A stretch of 64,000 nt of DNA from Pristiophorus japonicus. Lineage: Eukaryota. How positions within the stretch are numbered: the stretch's first letter is position 1; each line of letters starts with the position of its first letter. Position numbers and translations under genes: made by a program. Shown here in pieces: positions 12,428 through 62,752 of this stretch. The notes beneath the pieces are model-generated. The model did no database searches, was not told the origin of the DNA, and worked only from the letters and a program-made list of their open reading frames with translations. The stretch is taken from NCBI RefSeq assembly GCF_044704955.1, contig NC_092000.1:4650001-4714000 (forward strand), in the 5' to 3' direction.

Positions 12428-12440
12428 GTACGTACAACAC

Positions 12441-14645
12441 GGGCACTGCCCACATCCGGGGTCACCGCCCACATCCGGGGTCACCGCCCACATCCGGGGT
12501 CACCGCTCAAATCCGGGTCACCGCCCAGGGTCATTGCCCACATCCGGGTCACTGCCCGGGGTCACCGCCCACATCCGGGGTCACCGCCCACATCCGGGGT
12601 CACCGCTCACATCCGGGTCACCGCACAGGGTCACTGCCCACATCCGGGTCACTGCCCGGGGTCACCGCCCACATCCGGGTCACCGCCCACATCGGGGTCA
12701 CCGTCCATTTCCGGGCTCACTGCCAACATATCCAGGGTCACTCACTGCTCGGGGCCACCACCATCGTATCCGGGTTCACTGCCAACCTACCCTGGGTCAC
12801 CGCCCAGGGTCACCGTCAACATACCCGGGATCACCACCCATAGTCACCATCAACAGACCCAGGGTCACCACTAACATACTCGGGGTCACCGCCCAGGGTC
12901 ACGTCACCGTCCGGGGTCACCGCCAACATACCCGGGGTCACCGCCCAGGGTCACTGCCAACATACCCGGGGTCACCGCTCGGAGTCACCATCAACATACC
13001 CAGGGTCAACGCCAACATACCAAGGGTCACCGCCCGGGGTCACATCACCTTCCAGGGTCACCACCAACATACCTGGGGTCACCGCACAGGGTCACCGCCA
13101 ACATACCCAGGGTCGCTGCCCGGGGTCATCGCCAGCAGACCCGGGGTCACCACCCGGGGTTACTGCCAACAAACCCGGGGTCGTCGCCAACATACCCGGG
13201 CTCACCGCCAACATACCCTGGGTCACTCCCCAGGTTCACGGCCAACATACCCGGGGTCACTGCCTGGGTCGCTGCCCGGGGTCACTGCCGACATTCCCAT
13301 AGTCACCGTCCGGGGCCGCTGCCAACATACCCGGGGTCACTGCACGGGGTTGCCACCAACATACCCGGGGTCACTACAAACATACCCGCTGTCACCACCG
13401 GGGTCATCGCCCACATACCTGGGGTCACCACCAACAAACACGGGGTCACCGCCCATAGTCACCATCAACAGACCCAGGGTCACCACTAACATACTTGGGG
13501 TCACCGCCCAGGGTCACGTAACCGTCCGGGGTCACCGCCAACATACCCGGGGTCACCGCAAGGGTCACTGCCAACATACCCGGGGTCACCGCTCGGAGTC
13601 ACCATCAACATACTCAGGGTCAACGCCAACATACCAAGGGTCACCGCCCAGGGTCACGTCACCGTCCGGGGTCACCACCAACATACTTGGGGTCACCGCC
13701 CAGGGTCACGTAACCGTCCGGGGTCACCGCCAACATACCCGGGGTCACCGCAAGGGTCACTGCCAACATACCCGGGGTCACCGCTCGGAGTCACCATCAA
13801 CATACTCAGGGTCAACGCCAACATACCAAGGGTCACCGCCCGGGGTCACATCACCTTTCCAGGGTCACCACCAACATACCTGGGGTCACCGCACAGGGTC
13901 ACCGCCAACATACCCAGGGTTGCTGCCCGGGGTCATCGCCAGCATACCCGGGGTCACCGCCAACATACCCTGGGTCACTCCCCAGGTTCACGGCCAATAT
14001 ACCCGGGGTCACGCCCGGGGTCACTGCCGACATTCCCATAGTCACCGTCCAGGGCCGCTGCCAACATACCCAGGGTCACTGCACGGGTTCAGGGCCATAA
14101 TACCCGGGGTCATTGTCTAGGGTCACTGCCCGGGGTCATTGCCTACATACCCGGGGTCACGGCCCAAGGTCACTGCCTACATGCCCAGGGTCACCGCTCG
14201 GGGTTACCGTCAATGTACCCGGGGTTACTGCAACATATCCGGGGTCACCGCCAACATACCCAGGGTCACAGCCTGGGGTCAGCGCCAACATACCCAGGGT
14301 CACTGCCCGGGTCACAGCCGACATTCCCATAGTCACCGTCCGTGGCCGCTACCAACATACCCAGGGTCACCGCAACATACACACGGTCACTCCCCGCGCT
14401 CACTGCCTGGGTTATTACCCATGGCCACCACCCGGGATCACCGTCAACATACCCGGGGTCACTGCCAGCAAACCCGGGGTCACCGCCAACATGCCCGGGG
14501 TCACCACCAACGTACCTGGGGTCACCGCCAACATACCCAGGGTCACCTCCCGGGGCCACTACCAACATACCCGGGGTCACCACCAACATACCCGGGGTCA
14601 CCGCCCAGGGTCACATTAAAATACGCGGGGCCACTGCCCGGGGTC
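12441..14645 (+). repeat. Approx. 21-bp minisatellite (ggggtcaccgccaacataccc), left arm
   Basis: Degenerate tandem array with higher-order block duplications; continues after the CR1 insertion. Confidence 0.95.
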
Positions 14646-17600
14646 ATAGAAACATAGAAAATATAGAAACATAGAAAATAGGTGCAGGAGTAGGCCATTC
14701 GGCCCTTCGAGCCTGCACCGCCATTCAATGAGTTCATGGCTGAACATGCAACTTCAGTACCCCATTCCTGCTTTCTCGCCATAACCCTTGATCCCCCGAG
14801 TAGTAAGGACTAAATCTAACTCCTTTTTGAATATATTTAGTGAATTGGCCTCAACAACTTTCTGTGGTAGAGAATTCCACAGGTTCACCACTCTCTGGGT
14901 GAAGAAGTTTCTCCTCACCTTGGTCCTAAAAGGCTTACCCCTTATCCTTAGACTGTGTCCCCTGGTTCTGGACTTCCCCAACATCGGGAACATTCTTCCT
15001 GCATCTAACCTATCTAAACCCATCAGAATTTTAAACGTTTCTATGAGATCCTCTCTCATTCTTCTGAACTCCAGTGAATACAAGCCCAGTTGATCCAGTC
15101 TTTCTTGATATGTCAGTCCCGCCATCCCGGGAATCAGTCTGGTGAACCTTCGCTGCACTCCCTCAATAGCAAGAATGTCCTTCCTCAGGTTAGGAGACCA
15201 AAACTGTACACAGTACTCCAGGTGTGGCCTCACCAAGGCCCTGTACAACTGTAGCAACACCTCCCCTCGCTATGAAGGCCAACATGCCATTTGCTTTCTT
15301 AACCGCCTGCTGTACCTGCATGCCAACCTTCAATGACTGATGTACCATGACACCCAGGTCTCGTTGCACCTCCCCTTTTCCTAATCTGTCACCATTCTGA
15401 TAATAGTCTGTCTCTCTGTTTTTACCACCAAAGTGGATAACCTCACATTTATCCACATTATACTTCATCTGCCATGCATTTGCCCACTCACCTAACCTAT
15501 CCAAATCACTCTGCAGCCTCATAGCATCCTCCTCGCAGCTCATACTGCCATCCAACTTAGTGTCATCCGCAAATTTGGAGATACTACATTTAATCCCCTC
15601 GTCCAAATCATTAATGTACAATGTAAACAGCTGGAGCCCCAGCACAGAACCTTGCGGTACCCCACTAGTCACTGCCTGCCATTCTGAAAAGTACCCATTT
15701 ACTCCTACTCTTTGCTTCCTGTCTGACAACCAGTTCTCAAGCCATGTCAGCACACTACCCCCCAATCCCATGTGCTTTAACTTTGCACATTAATCTCTTG
15801 TGTGGGACCTTGTCGAAAGCCTTCTGAAAGTCCAAATATACCACATCAACTGGTTCTTCTTGTCCACTCTACTGGAAACATCCTCAAAAAATTCCAGAAG
15901 ATTTGTCAAGCATGATTTCCCTTTCACAAATCCATGCTGACTTGGACCTATCATGTCACCTCTTTCCAAATGCGCTGCTATGACATCCTTAATAATTGAT
16001 TCCATCATTTTACCCACTACCGATGTCCGGCTGACCGGTCTATAATTCCCTGTTTTCTCTCTCCCTCCTTTTTTAAAAAGTGGGGTTACATTGGCTACCC
16101 TCCACTCCATAGGAACTGATCCAGAGTCAATGGAATGTTGGAAAATGACTGTCAATGCATCTGCTATTTCCAAGGTCACCTCCTTAAGTACTCTGGGATG
16201 CAGTCCATCAGGCCCTGGGGATTTATCGGCCTTCAATCCCATCAATTACCCCAACACAATTTCCCGACTAATAAGGATTTCCCTCAGTTCCTCCTCCTTA
16301 CTAGACCCTCTGACCCCTTTTATATCCGGAAGGTTGTTTGTGTCCTCCTCAGTGAATACCGAACCAAAGTACTTGTTCAATTGGTCTGCCATTTCTTTGT
16401 TCCCCGTTATGACTTCCCCTGATTCTGACTGCAGGGGACCTACGTTTGTCTTTACTAACCTTTTTCTCTTTACATATCTATAGAAACTTTTGCAGTCCGT
16501 CTTAATGTTCCCTGCAAGCTTCCTCTCGTACTCTATTTTCCCTGCCCTAATCAAACCCTTTGTCCTCCTCTGCTGAGTTCTAAATTTCTCCCAGTCCCCG
16601 GGTTCACTGCTATTTCTGGCCAATTTGTATGCCACTTCCTTGGCTTTAATACTATCCCTGATTTCCCTTGATAGCCACGGTTGAGCCACCTTCCCTTTTT
16701 TATTTTTACGCCAGACAGGGATGTACAATTGTTGTAGTTCATCCATGCGGTCTCTAAATGTCTGCCATTGCCCATCCACAGTCAGCCCCTTAAGTACCAT
16801 TCGCCAATCTATCCTAGCCAATTCACACCTCATACCTTCAAAGTTACCCTTCTTTAAGTTCTGGACCATGGTCTCTGAATTAACTGTTTCATTCTCCATC
16901 CTAATGTAGAATTCCACCATATTATGGTCACTCTTCCCCAAGGGGCCTCGCACAACGAGATTGCTAATTAATCCTCTCTCATTACACAACACCCAGTCTA
17001 AGATGGCCTCCCCCCTAGTTGGTTCCTCGACATATTGGTCTAGAAAACCATCCCTTATGCACTCCAGGAAATCCTTCTCCACCGTATTGCTTCCAGTTTG
17101 GTTAGCCCAATCTATATGCATATTAAAGTCACCCATGATAACTGCTGCACCTTTATTGCATGCACCCCTAATTTCCTGTTTGATGCCCTCCCCAACATCA
17201 CTACTACTATTTGGAGGTCTGTACACAACTCCCACTAACGTTTTTTGCCCTTTGGTGTTCTGCAGCTCTACCCATATAGATTCCACATCATCCAAGCTAA
17301 TGTCCTTCCTAACTATTGCATTAATCTATTCTTTAACCAGCAATGCTACCCCACCTCCTTTTCCTTTTATTCTATCCTTCCTGAATGTTGAATACCCATG
17401 GATGTTGAGTTCCCAGCCCTGATCATCCTGGAGCCACGTCTCTGTAATCCCAATCACATCATATCTGTTAACATCTATTTGCACAGTTAATTCCTCCACC
17501 TTATTACGGATACTCCTTGTATTAAGACACAAAGCCTTCAGGCTTGTTTTTTTTAACATCCTTTGTCCTTTTAGAATTATGATGTAGTGTGGCCCTTTTT

Positions 17601-19350
17601 GTTTCTTGCCTTTGTTTACTCGGCCTTCCACTATTGCTTTTTACCTTTCTACCTTCTGTTTCTGACTCCATATTACTTTGCCCTATCTCGCTGCATAGGT
17701 TCCCATCCCCCTGCCATATTAGTTTAAACACTCCCGAACTGCATTAGCAAATGTTACCCCTAGGACATCAGTTCCAGTCCTGCCCGAGTGCAGACCGTCC
17801 CTTTTGTACAGGTCCCACTTCCCCCAGAACTGGTTCCAATGTCCCAGGAATTTGAATCCCTCTCTCTTGCACCACTGCTCAAGCCACGTATTTATTCTAA
17901 CTATCCTGCTCCCTCTACTCTGATTAGCACGTGGCACTGGTCGCAATCCAGAGATTACTACCTTTGAGGTCCTACTTTTTAATTTAACTCCTAGCTCCCT
18001 AAATTCAGCTTGTAGGACCTCTTCCCGCTTCTTACCTATATCGTTGGTACCTACATGTACCATGACAACTGGCTGTTCACCCTCCCTTTCCAGAATGCTC
18101 CGCAGCTGCTTCGAGACATCCTTGACCTTTGCACCAGGGAGGCAACATTCCGTCCTGGAGTCTCGGTTGCGGCCGCAGAAACTCCTATCTATTCCCTTTA
18201 CAATAGCTCTCCCACTCTTTTTCCTGCTCTTCTGTGCAGCAGAGCCACCCACGGTGCCATGAACCTGGCTGCTGGTGCCTTCCCCTGGCAAGTCATCTCC
18301 CCCAACAGTATCCAAAACGGTATATCTGTTTTGGAGGGAGATGACCGCAGGGGACTCCTGCACTACCTTCCTGCTCTTGCCTTGTCTCTTGGTCACCCAT
18401 TCACTATCTGTCCTAACCCTTACCTGCGGTGTGACCAACTCACTAAATGTGCTATCCACAACATTCCCAGCATCGCGCATGCTCCAGAGTGAGTCCATCC
18501 GCAGCTCCAGTGCCGTCATGCGGTCTGTCAGGAGCTGCAGCTGGACACACATTCCGCACACATAGTAGTCAGGGACACTGGAAGCGTCCCTGACTTCCCA
18601 CATCGCACAGGAGGAGCATGACACGGGTCCGAGCTCTCCTGCCATGACTTAACCCTTAAATTAATTTACTTACTAAAATTTACTTAAACACCAAACAGCT
18701 ACTTATTGGTTGGCTGACAATTAAACTAATCTAAAAGTCAGTCTAAAAGAGAGTTATACTTACCAGTCGAACAGCCAACCACTTACCAGCTTGGCTGTGA
18801 TGTCACCTCTCGATTTCGCACCCCTCTATCTTTGTCTGCAACTGGTTGGGCTGTTCTCTGGGCCTCCGCCTCCTACTCTCGCACTCCTTATCAGCTGCTC
18901 TAGTGTCAGCACTAGTAGGAAAAACAAGACAAAACAGCACCTGCCGCCCGAACTCACCCACTTACCAAACTCACGAATGCCACTCTATGCTGCTGCACTC
19001 CGTGCTCTGCACGAGCTGACTCTTTTTAAACTGTATCTAGGTCGGATGACCCACTACTGGTCAGTCGTTTACAGAACTGGTTTTAACTAGCTGCTAATTG
19101 CCTCCTACTGGAGAGTTACCTTGTTTTTCTCTGCCTAAACCTGAAAGATTCCCAACTATTTAACTTTTCCCCTTTAAATTAAACTGCTACTTACTTAGAA
19201 GCTACTGGCAATTTCCACTAACAATTTACTCCAGACTCCAAATGGTTTAAAGAGAATAACCCTTAAAACTCACCCTCTTACCAAACTAACAAATGCCACT
19301 CTATGCTGCTGCACTCTGTGCTCTGCACGAGCTGCCTCTTTTTAAACTGT
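14646..19350 (-). mobile_element. Essentially full-length CR1 LINE: 5'UTR, ORF1 (17719-18645), frameshifted ORF2 APE-RT (about 14754-17560), 3'UTR and tail
   Basis: ORF1 has CxxC..CxxC and an SGNH-esterase-like region (LPGA, HVGTND, DGLH). ORF2 has GITETW, MGDFN, SDHN, GVPQGSVLG, FADD. Tail (tagaaaca)n at 14646. Confidence 0.95.
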
Positions 19351-21890
19351 CAACATACCCGGGGTCACTGCCTGGGGTCACCGCAACATACCCTGGGTCA
19401 TCACTAATGTACCCGGGGTCACTGCCAACATACCCAGGGTTGCTGCCCGGGGTCACCACCAACATACCCGGGGTCACTACACGGGGTTGCCACCAACATG
19501 CCCGGGGCTCACCACCCACATACCCGGGGTCACTGCCAACATACCCGCTGTCACCGCCGAGGTCACCGCCCACATACCCGGGGTCACTGCCAACATACCC
19601 GCTGTCACCGCCGAGGTCACCGCCCACATACCCGGGGTCACCGCCAATATACTCGGGGTCACCACCAACAAACACGGAGTCATCGCACGAGGTCTCCAAC
19701 AACACATCCAGGGTCACTGCCAACATACCCGGGGTCACTGCCAACATACGTGGGGTCACGGCCCGGGGTCACCGCCAACATACCCGGGGTCACCGCCAAC
19801 AAACACGGGGTCATCGCACAAGGTCTCCAACAACACATCCAGGGTCACCGCCAACATACCCGGGGTCACCGGCAACATACCCGGGGTCACGGCCCGGTTC
19901 ACTACCAACATACCCGGGGTCACGGCCAGGGGCACCACCAACATATCCGGGGTCACCGCCAACATACCCGTGGTCACTGTCCGGGGTCACGGGAAACATA
20001 CCCACATCACGGTCCGGGGTCACTGCTTACATACCCATGGTCACCACCCAGGGTCACCGCCAACTAAACTGGGGTCACAGCCTGGGTTCACCACCAACAT
20101 ACCCATGGTCACCACCCAGGGTCACCGCCAACTAAACTGGGGTCACAGCCTGGGTTCACCACCAACAAACACGGAGTCATCGCACGAGGTCTCCAACAAC
20201 ACATCCGGGGTCACCGCCAACATACCCGGGGTCACCGCCAATATACTCGGGGTCACCACCAACAAACACGGAGTCATCGCACGAGGTCTCCAACAACACA
20301 TCCAGGGTCACTGCCAACATACGTGGGGTCACGGCCCGGGGTCACCGCCAACATACCCGGGGTCACCGCCAACAAACACGGGGTCATTGCACGAGGTCTC
20401 CAACAACACATCCAGGGTCACCGCCAACATACCCGGGGTCACGGCCCGGGGTCACCGCCAACATACCCGGGGTCACCGGCAACATCCCGGGGTCACCGGC
20501 AACATACCCGGGGTCACAGCCCGGTTCACTACCAACATACCCGGGGTCACGGCCAGGGGCACCACCAACATATCCGGGGTCACCGCCAACATACCCGTGG
20601 TCACTGTCCGGGGTCACGGGAAACATACCCACATCACGGTCCGGGGTCACTGCTTACATACCCATGGTCACCACCCAGGGTCACCGCCAACTAAACTGGG
20701 GTCACAGCCTGGGTTCACCACCAACATACTCGGGGTCACCGCCCGGGTTCACCACCAACGTTACCGCCAACATACCCGGGGTCACTGCCCTGGGTCACCG
20801 CCAACATAGCCGGGGTCACTGCCTGGCTTACTGCCGGGGTCAGTGCATACATACCCAAGGTCACCGCCTGGGGTCACCGCCCGACATACCGGGGTCACTG
20901 CTAACATAACCGTGGTTACCGCCCGGGGTCACTGCTGGGGGCACCGGCAACATATCTGGGGTCACTGCCAACATACCAAGGGTAACCGCCAACATACCCG
21001 GGGTCATCGCCCAGAGTCCCTGCCAGCATACCCGGAATCACCATAACATACCCGGGTTAACCGCCCAGGATCACCACCAATGTACCCGGGGTCATTGCCA
21101 ACATACCCAGGGTCGCAGCCCGGGGTCACCACCAACATTCCCAGGGTCACGGCCAACATACCCGGGGTGATTGTCCGGGGTCACTGCCTGGGTCATTGCC
21201 CGGGGTCACTGCCAACATACCCGGGGTCACCGCAAATAAACCCGGGGTCACCGCCCGGGGTTACCGCCAACATACCCGGGGTTACCGCCAACAAACCCGG
21301 GGTCACCGCCAACATACCTGGGGTTACCGCCAACAAACCCGGGGTCACCGCCAACATACCCGGGGTCACCGCCAACATACCCGGGGTTACCGCCAACAAA
21401 CCCGGGGTCACCGCCAACATACCCGGGGTCACCGCCAACATACCCGGGGTCACCGCAACAGACCTGGGGCCATTGCCTGGGGTCACCGACAACATACCCG
21501 AGGTCATCGCCAACGTACCCGGGGTCACCGCTCAGAGTCCCTGCCAGCATACCCGGGATCACTACAACATACCCAGGTTAACCGCCCTGGGTCACCACCA
21601 ATGTACCCGGGGTCATTGCCAACATAGCCGGGGTCACCACCAACATTCCCAGGGTCATGGCCAACATACCCGGGGTCATTGTCCGGGGTCACCGCCCGGG
21701 GTCACCGCCAACATACCCGGGGTCACCGCCTGGGGTCACCACCAAGATTCCCAGGGTCACCGCCAATATACCCGGGGTCATTGTCCGGGGTCACTGCCTG
21801 GGTCATTGCCCGGGGTCACCGCCAACATACCCGGGGTCACTGCCAACATACCCGGGGTCACCGCCAACATACCCGGGGTCACTGCCCAGG
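19351..21890 (+). repeat. Approx. 21-bp minisatellite (ggggtcaccgccaacataccc), right arm
   Basis: Same unit as 12441-14645. Confidence 0.95.
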
Positions 21891-51694: not shown

Positions 51695-51814
51695 CCGGCT
51701 CTGGCCCTCGCCTTCGGTCCCCAGTTGGCTTCCGGGTTTTCCTGGAATCGCTTCAGCCCTTGCTTCCTTGATTTGGGATTTGCATCTTCCCGGATATCGA
51801 AGCAAGCCTGCAGA
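51695..51814 (-). CDS. TRMT1: TRMT1 exon
   Basis: tctcag|[42 protein letters not shown]|gtaaga; conserved FQxNPExNWGP. Confidence 0.95.
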
Positions 51815-53419: not shown

Positions 53420-53727
53420 CGCAAGGTTGGTGTAAAAACCAGTTCGAATGGGAGAGGCTTACATTGCGAGAAATACAACAGACTCATTCTGAAAAGATCG
53501 GACGCAGGGAGGAATCGTCGCGCCTAGAAATCCAAAAGAAATCTCCAGCCTTCACTTGGTGAAACGAGCTTGAAACAGCCACACACAACTCGGCCTCCGT
53601 CAGGGTGGGAGCAGAATTATTACAGCACTCCAGGGCTACAGAGGAATCGCACGACCGAAGTCCATCGAATTCACCTTTTCAGATCAGCCGTGATCTCATT
53701 GAATGGCGGAGCAGGCTTGAGGGGCCG

Positions 53728-54372
53728 TGTGGAAATGTATTTTTATCTAAGCTGATACCATACGGTATTTGTGTGCCTTTTGATTAAAATGGAGTCCTGG
53801 CCCTTCCAGAACTTTCTGCATTTTAGCAGCCAGCTTATTATGAACAGCTAAACCTGCTGTTAGATGGCTGATGGTTATCAGACAGCTAGGAGACAAGTCA
53901 TGCTGAGACAAGTAACCCCCCATGGTGCTCTCCTATTGTCTACACTACAGGAGTTCCATGTCACCCCACCCTTATCTTCTAGCCATTATCTCTTTCCTTT
54001 ACCTCATCCATTTGAAGCAAACAGGTAAACTGACCAGGAAATAGCCCATTACCTATGACTCATGGAGTAATGGCCGTTTGGCTTTCTGATAACCCTGACA
54101 AAAGGGAATATCTTGACACCATTTCAGTCCAGGATATAGTAATTAACTCTTTATCTGTATTCACTGACTGTGAGACAGAGCAATACACAGGGAGAGGCCA
54201 GAACTTGGGTTTTACTGTATAAATATCTTGTGAAGCTGTACCATTGCGGAGGTTTCATTTTAGCCCTTGACTGAGTGAAACTTACCCCTTGCGAGCAAGT
54301 AAATTAAAAGGGAAACTTCCATCGGAGCTGTAAGTGTCGGAGTCATTCTTTTCTGAGGTCGAGATTTCGACA
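53728..54372 (+). repeat. ERV 5' LTR
   Basis: Terminal IR tgtggaaat/atttcgaca; AP-1 TGACTCA 54056-54062; TATAAAT 54218-54224; ATTAAA 54303-54308. Confidence 0.96.
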
Positions 54373-54377
54373 GTTAT

Positions 54378-54395
54378 TGGAGGTTCCACCGAGAT
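54378..54395 (+). promoter_or_regulatory. ERV primer-binding site, tRNA-Gln
   Basis: TGGAGGTTCCACCGAGAT is the reverse complement of the vertebrate tRNA-Gln(CTG) 3' 18 nt ATCTCGGTGGAACCTCCA. Confidence 0.9.
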
Positions 54396-55354
54396 GCATA
54401 CTCTCTGTTCTGTGAGTAAAACGGATACAGGCATAGTGCCTCTCCAGTGAAAGGCTTCGGTGGCCAAACAAGGTGAGCCTTTGCTCACAAGAGGTTTCTT
54501 CACTGTTGAATCGCAGATGTAATCTGTTGTCCACAGCTGAGGTACTGCATCTACAAGACTCGGCATTTAAAAGTTAAAGGTATTTTTTTTATAACCATTT
54601 CTTTCTCAGCTCACCAGCAGAAGAGAACAGGTTCTGGAAAAAAATCTCGAGACAGCCCGGGGAAGGTTTCAGTAGGTAAAAGAAAGCGCTAGTCGATCGA
54701 AAAGGGTTCCAGGTTCTTATATGATAAGATTTTTATTGTTTTTAATTCGGAAGGGGTTCTTATGTGATAAGACTATTAAAAGAAAAGAAAAAAAAAAGAA
54801 AGCGCTAATAATCGATCGAAGGTTCTTATGTGATAAGATTTTTATTGTTTTTAATTCGGAAGGGGTTCTTTTGTGATAAGACTATTAAAAAGAAAAAGAG
54901 CGCAATCGATCAAAGAGTTTGGGTACGGAACCTTAAGTTTTATCAGCTGTTATTAGGATAAGTTAAGGACTCGGTCTGTAGTGGCGTACAACGCAGACTG
55001 AGAATTTGTTTAGAGGTTATGATTTGTGTACTCACGGGAATATTGTTTGTTGTCCTTGTATTACTGTTGTGTGCAATACCTTTGTGAGTCATTGCCATTA
55101 GAGAAACGGGAAGAGTCACTAGGGAAAATTGTGATTCGAAAAAAAAAAAAACACAAGGATTGATTAGGAAAAGAAACAGTGACTGATTGATCAACTACGG
55201 TTGGTTCGTGCCAACATATCTCACACACCCAGACTGAGCCCGAATTAAGAGCCTTTTCAGGCCACGTAACAGCCAGGAGAAGTGGGCGTAGAGAACTCGG
55301 TTGGCCGAAAGGATTGTGAGATCAGAAACTGTGGGAAAATCTTAATCATCCAGA

Positions 55355-55625
55355 ATGGGTGCCGGAGCAAGTTAAAACACCACAAAAGGCACACCAGCCT
55401 ATGTCTTGCTCCAGAATTGTGGTCAGTCTTCAATTGACCAAAGAAACAAAAACCAGTAAAGTGGACTAAGGGTGAAAACAGGCCATTTCCACCCGATGGT
55501 TCATTTAATTTAGAGAGAACAACTTGTCTAGAGGAATGTCTTATAAACAGAGATCCAGGTAAAAAAAAAAAGGAAAGTAATAGAAAAGGCCTGGGTTCCG
55601 ATTCTTCAAACCCATGTAAAATTAA
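55355..55625 (+). pseudogene. gag: ERV gag (matrix) relic
   Basis: MGAGAS* myristoylation-type start, then GTPAYVLL and, after a frameshift, KWTKGENRPFPPDGSFNL; stops and poly-A expansions. Confidence 0.65.
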
Positions 55626-56346
55626 CAGAGGAAGTAAATCAAATGTAAAAAAAAAAAAGAGAACCTGATAGTGACTTATGAAAAAAAAATGAAGCTAGTA
55701 AAAGAAAAAGCTTTATTGAATGGAGAGAGACTTGTGAATGTCTTGTCTTTGAATGAGAGTGCGTGAATGTCTTGTCTTTGAATGAGAGTGCTTCTGTCTT
55801 TTTTCCTTGTGTCTGGAAACCTGTTTGGAAAAGTTGTGGAGCTGCCTGTTTGTTTTAGCTCCACCCACTTTTTCAAACAAAGTGAAGTTTTTTTAACCCT
55901 TCATAGTGTTGTCCTGTATGTGGGAAGTTTAAGACATTTTAAGTTAGAAGCGCAGGTGTGGATTTATTCGGATGAGAGGTTACAGAGCTAGGAAATGCAC
56001 AAAGGGATAGGTTTGTTGAGACATGGTCTCGGTGGTTAAAAGTTGTAATGTTTTTTTTTTAAAAAGCCTTTGTGGGTCTCTCGAGGTGCAGGCTGGGGGA
56101 GTACACTCTCATTGTCCTTGGTGTAAATTCTTGGTACAAAAGCTTCTAGCTCAGTAAGAGGATTTTTTTTTGATAAAGAGTGGCAGTAAAACAGTTGAAT
56201 TGGGATTTTGAGATATTTCAGGTGATCTCCTTGATCAACATTTTGAGTGTATTGGAAAAATCTTGGGTTTGGAGGCCTTTTAATAAGATTAGAAAACAAG
56301 TACTTTACATTCTGTGATCTGTGAATCACTATAAGCATAAATGAGA

Positions 56347-56689
56347 AGTCCGTGTAACACACAGATTTGTCCAGTTCAGAAGCCCACATAAATGGAGGTT
56401 TGTCCATGACCTACGAGCTGTGAATGAATCTACTATATTCTCACAATGCTTAAAGGATGTGGAATGAAGTATCCCGGAATGCTTTCCAGAACCTTAAGCA
56501 GTCCCTCACTTCAGCACCAGCCTTGGGATTACCAGATTACACTAAGCTATTCAACTTATTTGTGCATCACAAGTCGGGTTTTGCACAATCTGTTTTGACT
56601 CAGTTACATGGGGACAGGCAGCGACCGGTAGCGTATTTCAGTACCCAACTAGACCCAGTGGCACCGGACTACCAGGATGTCTTCCTTCA
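56347..56689 (+). pseudogene. pol: ERV RT relic: N-terminal motifs fused to thumb/connection, catalytic core deleted
   Basis: SPCNTQICPVQKP / KWRFVHDLRAVNE followed almost directly by WNE..AFQNLKQSLTSAPALGLPDY..RPVAYFS; no YxDD. Confidence 0.8.
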
Positions 56690-58684
56690 TTGGCAGCAGC
56701 TTATTATGCTATGCAACAGGCTCAGACAATAACTCTAAATCATCAGACCATTTTATATATCCCACACTCTGTCGAGATTTTACTTACTAAATGTGCCACC
56801 CAACACCTAACCTCCGCAAGAACCACTAAATACGAGGTCGAACTGTTATCAAATCCGAACCTTGTCATCAAAAGATGTACTACCTTAAATCCAGCCACTC
56901 TACTCCCCACGGAAGACGACGGCGAACCCCATTCATGTGAAATGGTAACCGAATTAGTGACTAAACCACGTATCAATCTAACAGATGTACCAATGTGTAA
57001 CCCTGATCTAGTGTACTATGTTGTCGGATCAGCCTTACGAAATGATAGGGGCCAACCTAGAGCGGCTTATGCAATTGTAACTCAGTTTAATGTTGTCGAA
57101 ACAGCCTCTCTTCCAGACTCCTTTTCAGCCCAACAAGCCGAATTGTTTGCGTTAACTCGAGCCTGTATTCTGGCTGAAGGACACACAGTTAATATCTACA
57201 CTGACTCCAGGTATGCTTTTGGGGTATCACATGACTATGGACAAATTTGGAAGATTCGCGGGTACCTGACTTCTTCAGGAACCCCTATCAAAAATGCAGA
57301 ACAAGTGGAAAATCTCCTGCGAGCCATTCAATGCCCCTTAAAACTTGCCATTATCAAATGCCAGGCACATACAGGCCAGTCGAATGAGGTGGCACTTGGG
57401 AATGCCAGAGCTGATAATGCAGCTAAGTCAGCAGCTCTGTCGAAAGGGGGGATGCAGGTGTCATTGTTCCCACTAAGGAAAAATAATTGCTCAGACCCGC
57501 CACCCACTATTAATGACGTGCTGGCCTTTCAGACACAGGCCAGTACGGAGGAGGTGGTGACCTGGACGAAGGATCAATGTTATAAAAATCCAGAAGGAAT
57601 ATGGGTTCACCATGACGGCCGCGTGGTGGCCCCTAGATCCTTACTTCCATGGATTGCCCGATGTGTTCATACATTCACACATGCAGGCAAAGGGGGATTG
57701 GCAGATTATATTTTGGCAACTTGGTATGCACCAGGTATTTCGGCAATTGCAAAACAAATCTGTGAAAATTGTGTTACCTGTCAGACAATGAATCCGGGTA
57801 AGACGGAAAAAGTAGAATCTGCCTCCCACCCAAATCCAGTCGGGCCTTTTGTACATTTACAAATGGATTTTATTGAATTACCTATGTGTATGGGATTCAA
57901 GTATGTATTAGTTATTGTAGATGTGTTCTCTAGATGGATTGAAGCCTTTCCATGTAAAAAGGCCGATGCCACTACTGTTGCTAAATGTTTGTTAAAAGAA
58001 ATTGTACCGCGCTTCGGAATCCCTGCTAAGCTTTCCAGTGATAACGGGTCACATTTCACGGGAACTGTCATAAGAGAAATGTGTAAAGCTTTACAGATTA
58101 ATCAACGTTTTCATTGCAGTTATCATCCACAATCAGCTGGACTTGTTGAAAGATATAATGGAATGCTTAAAAATAAGCTGGCAAAACTATGCAATGACAC
58201 TGGACTGAAATGGACAGAACTGCTGCCCTTAGCTTTGATGGTAATGCGATCTGCAACCAACAGAACAACAGGCTTGTCACCACATGAGATAGTTATGGGA
58301 CGTCCCCAACGACTACCTTTTACAGCACCATTTACTGCAAAACAGATGGACATCCACAAAATGGAGGAAAATATGTTGAATTATTGTATTGCACTAACCA
58401 AATGTATTTCCAGCTTTCATTCACAGGTAAAGGAAGCCCAAGTCAAGCCAGCGGAAGGGAAGTGTCATAACCTGGAGCCAGGGGAATTCGTTTACATCAA
58501 GATTTTTAAAAGGAAAAGCAATCTACAGCCAAGATTCAAAGGACCATACCAGGTCTTGCTGTCGACCAATACTGCAATCAAGGTAAAGGAAAGACCAACA
58601 TGGATCCACGCATCCCATTGCAAACGGGCACCCGACCAGGAGGAAGGGACGAAGGAATCAGAGGAACAGAAAAAGGAAGACTGA
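56690..58684 (+). CDS. pol: ERV pol 3' open frame: connection, RNase H, integrase (664 codons; first ATG 56711)
   Basis: SAQQAEL, IYTDSRYAF, GNARAD; IN HTFTH..CVTC, QMDF, SDNG, GLVER, GPY module. Confidence 0.9.
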   Translation: MAAAYYAMQQAQTITLNHQTILYIPHSVEILLTKCATQHLTSARTTKYEVELLSNPNLVIKRCTTLNPATLLPTEDDGEPHSCEMVTELVTKPRINLTDVPMCNPDLVYYVVGSALRNDRGQPRAAYAIVTQFNVVETASLPDSFSAQQAELFALTRACILAEGHTVNIYTDSRYAFGVSHDYGQIWKIRGYLTSSGTPIKNAEQVENLLRAIQCPLKLAIIKCQAHTGQSNEVALGNARADNAAKSAALSKGGMQVSLFPLRKNNCSDPPPTINDVLAFQTQASTEEVVTWTKDQCYKNPEGIWVHHDGRVVAPRSLLPWIARCVHTFTHAGKGGLADYILATWYAPGISAIAKQICENCVTCQTMNPGKTEKVESASHPNPVGPFVHLQMDFIELPMCMGFKYVLVIVDVFSRWIEAFPCKKADATTVAKCLLKEIVPRFGIPAKLSSDNGSHFTGTVIREMCKALQINQRFHCSYHPQSAGLVERYNGMLKNKLAKLCNDTGLKWTELLPLALMVMRSATNRTTGLSPHEIVMGRPQRLPFTAPFTAKQMDIHKMEENMLNYCIALTKCISSFHSQVKEAQVKPAEGKCHNLEPGEFVYIKIFKRKSNLQPRFKGPYQVLLSTNTAIKVKERPTWIHASHCKRAPDQEEGTKESEEQKKED

Positions 58685-59244
58685 ATAAAGAACTTTATGG
58701 ACTATGGGGACTGATGGTGCTGGGCTTGACAGGGTTTTACTTCGCATTATTGATTACACCAGGGGTACAGACCCACCACCGAAGGGAATTGCACGTAAAC
58801 GTATTTATGGCACTGAGTCATAGGTATGCTCAAGAAAGAAACTTGTCGAGTTGCTGGATATGTTCCCATGTACCTGTCCACTCCAGGGGGGGTATTCCCC
58901 TGAGATCTGTCCCCTTTAACGAATCAGAAATGGTAGAATGGTTGACAGTGCAAAACAGGACAAAACTAACTAAGGGGCCAGAAACAAAGGAGCAAACAGA
59001 ATGGAGGTCGACAGGGTATAAACTTACAGCCTTCCAGGGATGGTACCAGCCCAATTATGATAATAACCATCAGCCTCCCTTCCTAAGCATTACTCCCAGA
59101 ATAGGAAATCCTGAGGGTATAATATGCCTAGTGAGTAATGAAACTAAAAGAAATGGAAATGGAGAGACTGTACAAGATCAGAATGGATTGAGTTGTCCTT
59201 GTGAAGGACAAAATGGGGGAATGTGGAAATGTATTTTTATCTAA
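58600..59244 (+). CDS. env: ERV env, truncated (signal peptide plus SU N-terminus; no TM)
   Basis: Overlaps the pol end; hydrophobic GLWGLMVLGLTGFYFALLI; NLSSCWIC CxxC motif; N-glycosylation sequons; runs through the PPT into the 3' LTR. Confidence 0.8.
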   Translation: MDPRIPLQTGTRPGGRDEGIRGTEKGRLNKELYGLWGLMVLGLTGFYFALLITPGVQTHHRRELHVNVFMALSHRYAQERNLSSCWICSHVPVHSRGGIPLRSVPFNESEMVEWLTVQNRTKLTKGPETKEQTEWRSTGYKLTAFQGWYQPNYDNNHQPPFLSITPRIGNPEGIICLVSNETKRNGNGETVQDQNGLSCPCEGQNGGMWKCIFI

Positions 59245-59866
59245 GCTGATACCATACGGTATTTGTGTGCCTTTTGATTAAAATGGAGTCCTGGCCCTTC
59301 CAGAACTTTCTGCATTTTAGCAGCCAGCTTATTATGAACAGCTAAACCTGCTGTTAGATGGCTGATGGTTATCAGACAGCTAGGAGACAAGTCATGCTGA
59401 GACAAGTAACCCCCCATGGTGCTCTCCTATTGTCTACACTACAGGAGTTCCATGTCACCCCACCCTTATCTTCTAGCCATTATCTCTTTCCTTTACCTCA
59501 TCCATTTGAAGCAAACAGGTAAACTGACCAGGAAATAGCCCATTACCTATGACTCATGGAGTAATGGCCGTTTGGCTTTCTGATAACCCTGACAAAAGGG
59601 AATATCTTGACACCATTTCAGTCCAGGATATAGTAATTAACTCTTTATCTGTATTCACTGACTGTGAGACAGAGCAATACACAGGGAGAGGCCAGAACTT
59701 GGGTTTTACTGTATAAATATCTTGTGAAGCTGTACCATTGCGGAGGTTTCATTTTAGCCCTTGACTGAGTGAAACTTACCCCTTGCGAGCAAGTAAATTA
59801 AAAGGGAAACTTCCATCGGAGCTGTAAGTGTCGGAGTCATTCTTTTCTGAGGTCGAGATTTCGACA
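59222..59866 (+). repeat. ERV 3' LTR
   Basis: No differences from the 5' LTR seen by eye; preceded by PPT-like aaaatgggggaa. Confidence 0.96.
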
Positions 59867-59985
59867 GCCGAATGGCCGACTCCTGCTCCTATTTCTTATG
59901 TTCTCATCCTGGGGGGGGGTCACATGATCCAACGATAATGGGGTTGTCGACCAATCCCAGCAATCAATCTCGATCAGTGAGTGTA

Positions 59986-60992
59986 CATAAGAAATAGGAG
60001 CAGGAGTCGGCCATTCGGCCCCTCGAGCCTGCTCCGCCATTCAATAAGATCATAGACTCAGGTCCACTTCCCCACCCGCTCCCCATAACCCCTTATTCCC
60101 TTATCGTTTAAGAAACTGTCTATTTCTGTCTTAAATTTATTCAATGACCCAGCTTCCACAGCTCTCTGAGGCAGCGAATTCCACAGATTTACAACTCTCA
60201 GAGAAAAAATTTCTCATCTCAGTTTTAAATGGGCGGCCCCTTATTCTAAGATTATGCCCTCTAGTTCTAGTCTTCCCCATCAGTGGAAACATCCTCTCTG
60301 CATCCACCTTGTCAAGCCCCCTCATAATCTTATACGTCTTGATAAGATCACCTCTCATTCTTCTGAATTCCAATAAATAGAGGCCCAACCTACTCAATCT
60401 TTCTCATAAATCAACCTCGTGAACCTTCTCAACTGCCTCCAAAGCAAGTATATCCTTTTGTAAATATGGAAACCAAAACTGCACGCAGTACTCCAGGTGT
60501 GGCCTCACCAATACCCTGTATAGCTGGAGCAAGACTTCCCTGCTTTTATACTCCATCCTCTTTGCAACAAAGGCCAAGATTCCATTGGCCTTCCTGATCA
60601 CTTGCTATACCTGCATACTATCCTTTTGTGTTTTATGCACAAGTACCCCCAGGTCCCGCTGCAATCTTTCTCCATTTAAATAATAACCTGCTCTTTGATT
60701 TTTTTCTGCCAAAGTGCATCATGACCTCACACTTTCCAACATTATACTCCATCTGCCAAATCTTTGCGCACTCACTTTGCCTGTCTATGTCCTTTTGCAG
60801 ACTTTTTGTGTCCTCCTCACACATTGCTTTTCCTCCCATTTTTGTATCGTCAGCAAACTTGGCTACGTTACACTCAGTCCCTTCTTCCAAGTCATTACTA
60901 TAGATTGTAAATAGTTGGGGTCCCAGCACTGATCCCTGTGGCACCTCACTAGTTACTGATTGCCAACCCGAGAACGAACCATTTATCCCGAC
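59986..60992 (-). mobile_element. CR1 LINE 3' fragment
   Basis: ORFs 60137-60397, 60404-60601 and 60633-61040. Confidence 0.9.
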
Positions 60993-61296
60993 AACAGACC
61001 CAGACATGAAGCTCACGTTACTCAGATACTGGAGTGCCAAGTGCTGTTCTCTGATGGAATTCTATCCAATATACATTTCAATCAATCAACACAAACTGCT
61101 CCCACCATCTCCCTCGGGAGGCTGGTCCATAGACTCCCAACTTGTGCAAAGCACACTGGCCCAGCCCCAGCTGTGGGATCGTGTACTATTCTGCCAATTG
61201 GAGTACAGACACCTGGCATTAGCGAGGGTATGGCTGAAGGGCTTTTTATCCCAGGCCAGACCCGTGAGCTCTGATTAGAGGTGATGGAAGAAGCTG

Positions 61297-62262
61297 TGTC
61301 AGCCGTGGCTCAGTGAACAGCACACTCGCCTCCGAGTCAGAAGGCGGTGGGGTTCAAGTCCCACTCCAGAGACTGGAGTGCATAAATCTAGGCTAACACT
61401 TCAGTGCAGTACTGAGGGAGCGCCGCACTGTCAGAGGAGCAGTACTGAGGGAGTGCCACACCGTCGGAGGGGCAGTGCTGAGGGAGCGCCGCACTGTCGG
61501 AGGAGCAGTACTGAGGGAGTGCCACACCGTCGGAGGGGCGGTGCTGAGGGAGCGCCGCACTGTCGGAGGGGCAGTACTGAGGGAGCGCCGCACTGTCGGG
61601 GCGGCGCTGAGGGAGCGCCGCACTGTCAGAGGGGCAGTGCTGAGGGAGCGCCGCACTGTCAGAGGGGCAGTACTGAGGGAGCCCCGCACTGTCGGAGGGG
61701 CAGTGCTGAGGGAGCGCCGCACTGTCGGAGGGGCAGTGCTGAGGGAGCGCCGCACTGTCGGAGGGGCAGTACTGAGGGAGCCCCGCACTGTCGGAGGGGC
61801 AGTACTGAGGGAGCGTCGCACTGTCGGAGGGGCAGTACTGAGGGAGTGCCACACTGTCGGAGGGGCAGTACTGAGGGAGCGCCGCACTGTCGGAGGGGCA
61901 GTACTGAGGGAGCGCCGGCCGCACTGTCGGAGGGGCAGTGCTGAGGGAGCCCCGTACTGTCGGAGGGGCAGTGCTGAGGGAGCGCCGCACTGTCGGAGGG
62001 GCGGTGCTGAGGGAGCGCCGCACTGTCGGAGGGGCAGTACTGAAGGAGCCCCGCACTGTCGGAGGGGCAGTACTGAGGGAGCGCCGCACTGTCGGAGGGG
62101 CAGTACTGAGGGAGCGCCGCACTGTTGGAGGGGCGGTGCTGAGGGAGCGCCGCACTGTCGGAGGGGCAGTGCTGAGGGAGCGCCGCACTGTCGGAGGGGC
62201 CGTTTTTCGGTTGAGACGTTAAACCGAGGCCCCGTCTGCTCTCTCAGGTGGACATGAAAGAT
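61297..62262 (+). mobile_element. tRNA-head DeuSINE-like SINE with the 33-bp unit expanded about 24 times (61406-62200)
   Basis: A-box tggctcagtg, B-box ggttcaagtcc, then the array, then gccgtttttcggttgagacgttaaaccgaggccccgtctg..caggtggac. Confidence 0.78.
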
Positions 62263-62331
62263 ATTTTCCTGGTCAAGTCGAGCTCTGCCCCAATAGGCCC
62301 CCGGCAGTGGGATTCAAATTGAACAACTTAC

Positions 62332-62408
62332 ACAGGCTCTTTGCCGAGGATGCGAAAGGCGGGGCTGCTCTCGGACAGCTTCTCTCGCTTCACAGGGTGG
62401 ATCTTCGC
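62332..62408 (-). CDS. TRMT1: TRMT1 exon
   Basis: tgcag|AKIHPVKREKLSESSPAFRILGKEP GT|gtaagt. Confidence 0.94.
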
Positions 62409-62643
62409 CTGCAGCAAAAACAGAGCAAAGATTAAACCCCGATTAACCCTTCCACATAACCCCCATCCCCCCACATTAACCCCTCACTGCCCAGAAAACA
62501 GCCGCTCGCCTCTAAATCCAGTGCCCGAGCTCACACATGTTTTTGGGCCTTCACGCACTAGCGTGCTGAATTCTTATTTCACTGTACCCCGCACCTAACC
62601 GTCGATATAATGTTAATCTCACACCGACAGATTGGCCTCTTAC

Positions 62644-62752
62644 CCAGCTCCTCATGACATCCCAGATCACCGAAGATGGTGCGTCGGTTTTCACTGCGTT
62701 TTTACAAGCGTGCGAGAGGGACACGCGATACCCAGCGTGGAGGAGGGCAGAC
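62644..62752 (-). CDS. TRMT1: TRMT1 exon
   Basis: taag|[37 protein letters not shown]|gtaaga. Confidence 0.96.

Follow-up and report, generated by a model that had tools for sequence, protein, structure and literature searches.

This locus raises the question of how an endogenous retrovirus (ERV) could be bounded by two apparently identical long terminal repeats (LTRs), as expected of a recent insertion, and still be damaged inside. An earlier note, made from sequence alone, had called the element very young but internally wrecked and had placed it in a non-autonomous lineage. Trans-copying of defective ERVs is familiar from mammals, and the combination of wreckage and recent copying is therefore in itself unsurprising. 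Here, we examined which parts of the element are broken, when the damage arose, and whether the remainder is still under selection. The window is the whole stretch of DNA that was analyzed, 64,000 nucleotides from the shark Pristiophorus japonicus (Table 1).

Table 1. Features of the provirus and its host gene, numbered from the first nucleotide of the window.
Feature	Position	Strand	Details
Left target-site duplication (TSD), 4 bp	53724..53727	+	GCCG, within the 3′ end of a dispersed repeat
5′ LTR, 645 bp, TG...CA	53728..54372	+	TATA-like site at 54218
Primer binding site (PBS) for tRNA-Gln	54378..54395	+	starts 5 nt past the LTR end
Leader	54396..55354	+	tandem duplication of ~109 bp, homopolymer runs
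gag matrix remnant	55355..55563	+	Met-Gly start, one stop, one frameshift; moderate evidence
A/T-rich stretch with homopolymer runs, at the expected capsid/nucleocapsid/protease place	55564..56340	+	
Reverse transcriptase (RT) start remnant, two frames	56341..56437	+	RT start motifs
RT-core deletion junction, about 200 codons gone	56437..56457	+	common to organism B
RT connection domain	56457..56672	+	from position 1 of Pfam PF17919; runs to a frameshift around 56660-56672
Open frame of 712 codons: remainder of the connection domain, RNase H, then zinc finger, core and C-terminus of integrase	56546..58684	+	
Likely env splice acceptor, within integrase	58095..58120	+	used by predicted gene model P0121
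Open N-terminal part of env	58600..59148	+	env homology stops at 59148
Polypurine tract (PPT)	59206..59221	+	
3′ LTR, 645 bp	59222..59866	+	same sequence as 5′ LTR
Right TSD	59867..59870	+	GCCG
Host TRMT1 exon	62644..62751	-	Pfam TRM, E 2e-9

The provirus likely lies in a later intron of TRMT1, between probable exons at 62331-62411 and 51697-51813, which we take to be TRMT1 exons. Its antisense orientation to this gene, as the earlier note had it, agrees with the minus-strand exon that matches Pfam TRM; that exon had no match in PDB, and three further host exons had none in Pfam or PDB.

The boundaries are those of an integrated provirus, comprising directly repeated LTRs with TG...CA ends, a short TSD, and an adjoining PBS and PPT, with homology to gag, pol, and env in retroviral order, although the gag match is only moderate. 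Exact alignment of the LTR pair gave zero mismatches over 645 bp, and the LTR terminal inverted repeat matches at 8 of 9 positions. The claim of a clean duplication splitting a repeat also stood: GCCG was found at both ends, and the rejoined flank motif of the interrupted high-copy repeat, presumably CR1, is intact in three other copies within the window (4870+, 50221+, and 60027-, each with at most two mismatches). Both the PBS and the PPT, said to be intact, were located, the former representing the 3′ end of tRNA-Gln(CTG), a primer reported in an excerpt of PMC7744096.

Extreme youth, by comparison, is unproven. Sharks mutate slowly (PMC10587355), and at published shark rates identical LTRs are compatible with an age of as much as 3.3 million generations (about 10 My). 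It is very unlikely, in our estimation, that the LTR identity is a product of assembly collapse or gene conversion and that the insertion is old. The LTRs of the family are heterogeneous and a single run, X1, holds 85% of sampled words, both of which would suit such an artifact, but the TSD, PBS, and PPT junctions are exact, the element contains no N letters, and the identity extends from end to end. Even under this explanation, neither the shared deletion nor the selection signal described below would be lost.

With respect to the interior, the description as wrecked held for the 5′ half. Gag has decayed to a broken matrix remnant, for which the best local match of 41 was to the N-terminal end of a Gag-Pol from a newt (z 5.8), while a second gag piece had no match in Pfam or Atlas. 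The leader/gag part contains ten homopolymer runs of at least 7 bases, versus none in pol, in line with the poly-A runs noted previously, and a 66-nt leader segment (54610-54675) is an exon in a P. japonicus gene model. No convincing homology to capsid, nucleocapsid, or protease was detected in the A/T-rich stretch, and the search for a protease found no match in the element. The RT start motifs abut the RT connection domain directly, such that a median of 203 RT residues are missing (range 114-206, from the 49 of 69 long homologues matching both sides); the loss of the RT core was thus correctly recognized. Between gag and the connection domain the window copy has stops in all three frames.

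The 3′ half, however, did not fit the description, having a 712-codon stop-free frame and an open N-terminal env. RNase H is located at 57005-57436, with one conserved active-site position substituted (codon 57023). The window copy keeps 69 of 70 highly conserved columns, a count that is weak alone because 4 of 5 such columns are likewise retained in the RT-start remnants (9 of 10 at a looser threshold). Conservation begins at the junction, with 13 of 13 conserved columns kept in 56457-56663. The remainder of the env surface unit (SU) and the whole transmembrane unit (TM) are missing beyond the end of env homology, while in the P. japonicus relative P0297 (65/73 identical) env is longer and runs into TM. 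An X8 contig parts from the window at 59145 and continues with 288 letters of other sequence.

To place the damage in time we used contigs from X1, X5, X8 (organism B), and X9, out of nine listed runs (X2-X4, X6, and X7 were left out); X9 (organism C, share 0.10) was then dropped, as its 52 records and depth of 2-5 on the element represent trace DNA at best. The contigs show a multi-copy family. The earlier note had proposed a check for sibling copies with the same deletion, and one X8 contig (56181-56558) bridges the RT junction, differing from the window by 14 letters and 3 gaps over 378 bp (~96% identity); X8 depth was present in 30 of 30 bins, and for organism A the listed pieces included no contig across the junction. 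Since the deletion is common to a second organism label at about 96% identity, it predates the window insertion. Moreover, 8 differences from X5 in 1638 bp (five pieces) predict 6.3 differences between the LTRs (P of none 0.002), while 11 of the listed sites that are nearly private to the window copy predict 2.9 (P 0.054). These changes are too many beside identical LTRs, and hence the internal damage appears older than the insertion, as had been proposed. The proposal of a non-autonomous lineage likewise stands, the element being unable to copy itself and the family having many copies. Related loci were absent from metagenome, viral, and prokaryote contigs.

The two halves have diverged differently across the family. 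X8 pieces contain no gaps in 1590 bp of pol versus 36 gaps in 1291 bp of the 5′ part (four listed pieces, with 66 letter differences from the window), a count inflated by the homopolymer-rich nature of the latter. All six internal indels among those listed fall in the 5′ part, and three of four frame lesions lie within the approximately 100 codons of the 5′ remnants (P 0.004). In organism B, the clean pol is linked to the deletion only as far as 100 bp beyond the junction. A depth step occurs in X5 near 58130; contigs cannot rank parts of a gene.

Among the listed family variants, the 3′ half carries a signal of purifying selection. The test comprised 18 open-frame sites, a non-random set chosen by support among 40 listed of 513 rows, of which 12 were synonymous against an expected proportion of 0.29-0.375 (P 0.0009-0.011), and 13 were at third codon positions (P 0.0009). 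In the two other plus-strand frames, the counts were 3/18 and 2/18. Sites that were not private to the lineage of the window copy were synonymous in 10 of 12 cases versus 2 of 6 for private sites, and the private variants look neutral. Of the 12 listed variants that lie upstream of the env acceptor, 9 were synonymous, and the signal is therefore not accounted for by env.

We consider it unlikely that the family is an ordinary deletion derivative without continuing selection or exchange, in which the synonymous excess came from the choice of rows or from admixed intact proviruses and the 3′ half had simply not had long enough to decay, given the mutation rates of sharks. Listing 40 of 513 rows leaves room for such a bias, but choice by support does not favor third positions, and at 11 of the 18 pol sites one X8 contig carries all the depth. 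Slow shark mutation (PMC10587355) would be in keeping with this explanation, as would the conserved residues mostly kept by the RT-start remnants and the part of the 5′ indel excess for which homopolymer runs account; older diverged pieces, however, do have pol gaps (9 in 7 listed X1/X5 pieces).

The explanation we prefer, and to which we would give an even chance, is that the element belongs to a non-autonomous class I ERV lineage that is old and is copied by a helper, with the 3′ half of the element probably refreshed through template switching onto helper RNA. Copying of the element was probably the work of a helper virus, since capsid, protease, and the copying enzyme are absent despite identical LTRs. 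In this scheme, the LTR would drive a full-length RNA that keeps the PBS, leader, and PPT; helper Gag would package this RNA, helper RT would copy it using tRNA-Gln, and an integrase would insert the DNA with a 4-bp duplication. The 5′ part, no longer homologous to the helper, would decay by slippage in homopolymer runs, while the 3′ part, still homologous, could be traded with a helper that is itself under purifying selection. From one exchange to the next the 3′ part would drift, and the frameshift, the lost RNase H active-site position, and the truncated env may represent such drift in the lineage of the window copy. No helper was found in protein searches, where the best full-length Pol was 47% identical (1162 aa) and the best long match 52%. 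X8 RNase H-integrase contigs (depth 93-133) had no greater depth than the contig across the junction (103), which would make any helper a small minority, with the caveat that contig depth is not copy number. The loose ends and joints of the contigs were dominated by the flanking repeat, and no helper junction was legible among them. Counting against recombination with a helper, conservation starts at the junction and the break falls at position 1 of the Pfam domain; selection on the protein fits these two observations better than random crossovers.

Such selection could be explained if the family borrowed Gag, protease, and RT but its own connection-RNase H-integrase were selected, acting in cis on the DNA ends, perhaps because these go unrecognized by too distant a helper, with the window copy being a dead daughter. 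We hold this as a tentative possibility. The deletion stops short of the connection domain, which is retained from the first Pfam position on, conservation begins where the deletion ends, and the synonymous excess upstream of the env acceptor is also as this reading would have it, as are the lack of a close full-length Pol in protein searches and the long, variable LTR-to-PBS spacer (5 nt in the window copy, 9 nt in the X1 and X5 joints). An ATG at 56457 could provide a start in the window copy but is missing from both X8 contigs there and from part of X1 and X5. Retroviral Pol is normally packaged as Gag-Pol, and there is no known way into particles without Gag. Furthermore, no transcript of the connection-RNase H-integrase frame was seen, and the window copy was inserted even though its lineage has non-synonymous changes at a neutral rate. 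A precedent for aid in cis to a deleted ERV is mouse IAP 1delta1, which is helped by its own fusion protein, according to excerpts of PMC6466679 and PMC7411935. Taken further, and rather doubtfully, the family would be an "end-enzyme-only" ERV, a long-lived shark parasite without RT or Gag, in at least two host lineages, and selected for its own RNase H and integrase, the enzymes that would define and recognize the ends of its DNA.

We find it hardly credible that the family is one half of a two-part retrovirus, in which a partner gives Gag, protease, and polymerase and the family gives RNase H and integrase, plus Env in its longer members. The gene content would be complementary, the retained part carries a selection signal, and env is longer in relatives, yet no partner was seen and our literature searches turned up no such system.

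The element is class I (gamma/epsilon-like), with an MLV-type integrase C-terminus (PF18697, E 6e-14); 7 of the 11 env relatives that were scanned carry PF00429 (TLV_coat-type env). A tree of 40 Pol sequences placed it among ERVs of turtle, hagfish, newt, and teleosts (local support 0.56-0.59) and outside the MLV/PERV clade (support 1.0), and a gammaretrovirus was therefore rejected. Its neighbors suggest that it is epsilon-like, as judged from a tree without WDSV and WEHV and from a Pol missing the RT core. Replication genes are lost, cis signals are kept, and a lesion is common to several copies, as in non-autonomous ERVs. A domesticated NYNRIN-type gene was rejected, as this is a multi-copy LTR element, the lineage of the window copy drifts neutrally, and the NYNRIN names are automatic. 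A LINE-mobilized processed copy was also rejected, as both LTRs are complete, the duplication is 4 bp, and a poly-A tail is absent.

The family indicates ERV copying, hidden from RT-based screens, within a shark lineage. The selection signal in the RNase H-integrase of an RT-less family implies either a living helper that recombines with it or use of its own integrase, and a public shark assembly could tell these apart. We found neither this family nor an RT-less ERV whose RNase H-integrase is under selection described in literature judged from titles and abstract openings, with poor coverage of subscription papers.

The known systems compared here are described from excerpts of the cited papers. 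Identical LTRs recall ERVi (invading ERVs), but these are defined by gag, pro, pol, and env in intact form together with polymorphism (PMC10435555), and the broken genes here exclude the element. The ERVi survey, in which 0 of 13 cartilaginous fishes had one (PMC10435555, Supplementary Data 8), used an RT-based screen (PMC10435555), and such screens would likely miss this element because the family lacks RT. Like mouse ETn/MusD and VL30/MLV, it is a non-autonomous LTR element of the kind copied by a related competent ERV; unlike ETn, which has no coding capacity (PMC6466679), it keeps about 900 codons with a single frameshift. In cattle, ERVK[2-1-LTR] D-type elements are defective with intact LTRs, are mobilized in trans, outnumber and recombine with competent copies, and dominate new insertions (PMC10924933). 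These bovine elements belong to class II, carry a swapped segment in the center, and lack an intact open reading frame (PMC10924933), whereas the window element is class I, carries deletions, and keeps an RNase H-integrase frame that is open and shows an excess of synonymous variants. CmiERV lineages II and III of the elephant shark are also class I, epsilon-related, and from a cartilaginous fish, although their LTRs are 2.4-3.3% diverged and dated at more than 50 My, and the likeness is one of description (PMC4422223). Mouse IAP 1delta1 resembles the element in its internal gag/pol deletion, its need for Gag and Pol in trans, and its open 3′ pol frame (PMC6466679, PMC7411935). It makes a cis-acting Gag-Pol fusion (PMC6466679, PMC7411935), while the gag of the window copy is broken, as read from its sequence, and for this copy an element of the 1delta1 type was rejected given the absence of an in-frame fusion and the stops in three frames.

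The two halves of the provirus differed in condition. The 5′ 2 kb was decayed, with 10 homopolymer runs and a 109-bp duplication, and searches of the element for homology to capsid, nucleocapsid, and protease found none. A 32-codon remnant of the reverse transcriptase (RT) start was fused straight to the RT connection domain, with a median of 203 residues absent relative to the long homologues that matched both sides (49/69). Beyond a single frameshift near 56660-56672, the frame was open up to 58684 and contained RNase H and every integrase domain. This region retained 69 of the 70 columns with ≥90% conservation across 39 homologues; the one lost was an RNase H active-site position (codon 57023), and a repeat count with 69 other homologues gave 55/56. 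Env was open from 58600, and its homology to P0297, a predicted P. japonicus protein that runs on into the transmembrane part, stopped at 59148 (65/73 identical). Thus, the earlier note was right that no protease is recognizable and that the RT core is missing, while its "internally wrecked" is true of the 5′ half only, given the open RNase H-integrase frame and env start. A contig from organism A (set X5) across the pol frameshift (56520-56832) had one gap against the window, its place not given; the frameshift may therefore be less than family-wide.

The ends of the element bore out what had been noted by eye. The long terminal repeats (LTRs), 645 bp each with TG...CA termini, had zero differences when compared exactly, GCCG was present on either side of the element, and the joined flank motif was unbroken in three other window copies of the interrupted repeat. 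The polypurine tract directly adjoined the 3′ LTR, and the primer-binding site (PBS), likewise reported as intact, started 5 nt past the 5′ LTR and corresponded to the tRNA-Gln 3′ end, as that end is given in part of PMC7744096. The LTR-PBS spacer (54373-54377) was 5 nt in the window and 9 nt, in two different sequences, in X1/X5 joints from organism A. The usual MLV spacer is 2 nt, shorter than those of this family. There were 0 assembly Ns inside the element, and an artefactual LTR pair is very unlikely. The reported antisense placement also stood: the element lies in an intron of what is by its Pfam TRM match (one exon) a TRMT1-type gene, and the exons on either side of the element presumably belong to this gene as well. 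Among other repeats in the window, the 33-bp unit is a dispersed minisatellite, apparently transported within a mobile repeat, and the inverted repeat arises from two tail-to-tail copies of one repeat end.

Positions of the element and other repeat features in the window
Feature	Position	Remarks
Element	53728-59866	both LTRs included
Gag matrix remnant	55355-55563	one stop, one frameshift; moderate match
33-bp GC-rich tandem unit, four arrays	26144-27122, 35916-36808, 38608-38895, 61406-62203	both orientations; 88-98% alike
Perfect inverted repeat, 35 bp	59867-60052	arms 83 nt apart; adjoins 3′ LTR
Degenerate tandem repeat, two long arrays	12440-14650, 19350-21890	about 70% alike to each other

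Nine runs contained the element or part of it, and four were compared over 54373-61400, all as contigs, the depth of which does not equal copy number. X1 and X5 held many variant contigs across the entire internal part, and the organism B set (X8) covered 30/30 bins. One X8 contig (56181-56558) spanned the RT junction with 14 other letters and 3 gaps, so the RT deletion predates the split of the window and organism B copies, whose divergence was 5.1% over the listed 5′ pieces and 3.4% over pol. The proposal that decay preceded this insertion, and that siblings would share the deletion, was thereby upheld. A second X8 contig tracked env to 59145, followed by 288 other letters; the side on which this unmatched part lies was taken from two organism C (X9) records. 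That set itself was dropped as a family source, being trace DNA.

The absence of differences in 645 bp bounds LTR divergence at ≤0.46% (95%), equivalent to 3.3 million generations at 7e-10 per generation (PMC10587355) or about 10 My with PMC4422223's assumed 2.2e-10 per year. LTR identity therefore does not settle "very young", and this claim of age is unproven; in zebrafish, 248/890 elements have identical LTRs, according to a passage of PMC8672886. Relative timing, with internal differences older than the insertion, is better based. Specifically, 8 differences in 1638 bases from five X5 pieces predict 6.3 LTR differences if all postdate insertion (P 0.002 for none), and the 11 listed sites nearly private to the window copy give P 0.054 by the same reasoning. 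Among X1 contigs (72% of X1 read), some matched the window's letter at 9 of these 11 sites, and none did at 2.

Among 40 of 513 variants, picked by support, 18 lay within the open frame, and 12 of these were synonymous, where 29-38% would be expected once transitions and CpG sites are weighted (P 0.0009-0.011). Third codon positions held 13/18, compared with 3 and 2 of 18 in the remaining two plus-strand frames. Sites private to the window copy's lineage looked neutral (2/6 synonymous); the others did not (10/12). The same count at four listed env sites gave 2 and 2. Moreover, gaps in X8 numbered 0 over 1590 bp of pol and 36 over 1291 bp of the 5′ part, where all six internal indels among 12 of 96 rows also fell. 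Against selection, the rows are few and chosen by support, homopolymer runs raise the 5′ indel count, and RT-start remnants likewise retain most conserved residues. We consider a complete lack of selection improbable. Separately, three near-private nonsynonymous differences lay together in a 42-bp stretch of the sequence for the integrase C-terminal domain (58521-58562), possibly a recombined patch, and P0121, another predicted P. japonicus protein, agreed with the window over the 130 residues before it. Summed contig depth rose at 58130-59777, just past the likely env splice acceptor, in X5 and X8 and not in X1; this is only a lead for env-type RNA, as contigs give no basis for ranking the parts of a gene.

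Provided that the LTRs are genuine, the element was very probably copied in trans, which its inability to make particles or cDNA renders close to certain. We favor, while evenly divided about it, a 3′ half kept clean by recurrent template switches to the RNA of a helper: element and helper RNAs would be packaged together, the copying enzyme would switch repeatedly between them, and exchange would renew just the part 3′ of the deletion, since homology to the helper is left only there. Recombination between defective and competent copies is reported for cattle ERVK in part of PMC10924933. However, conservation begins at the RT junction, which coincides with position 1 of the Pfam domain, and protein searches for a close helper Pol found none, the best long match being 47%. 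Both points leave room for a family that encodes a connection-RNase H-integrase protein to serve itself in cis, which might loosely resemble the IAP 1delta1 fusion protein as described in parts of PMC6466679 and PMC7411935; its translation and packaging routes are hypothetical, and organism B lacks the junction ATG. This reading is unlikely. A two-part virus is the least probable reading. The helper claim of the earlier note is unproven.

Two P. japonicus gene models belonged to the element's family, P0297 and P0121, the latter 97% alike over 188 integrase residues and with a leader exon predicted to be spliced to 58120. The host is thus probably a sawshark or a near relative of one. In a tree of 40 sequences, the RNase H-integrase had turtle, hagfish, newt, and teleost ERVs as neighbors, a placement with weak local support, and stood apart from MLV and PERV, whereby a gammaretroviral identity was rejected. 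By this sequence comparison, the set for which lacked an epsilon reference, the element is a class I ERV and not gamma; epsilon-like human groups, in part of PMC4724089, provide context only. ERVi identity was also rejected, as PMC10435555 demands intact genes; it gives 0 ERVi among 13 cartilaginous fishes. Literature searches found no published description of the family, and the selected RNase H-integrase of a family that lacks RT is the part that merits following. In the features tested, the element is a non-autonomous class I ERV, with a helper that is only inferred, and in its way of working it is like ETn, VL30, IAP 1delta1, and the cattle D-type elements.
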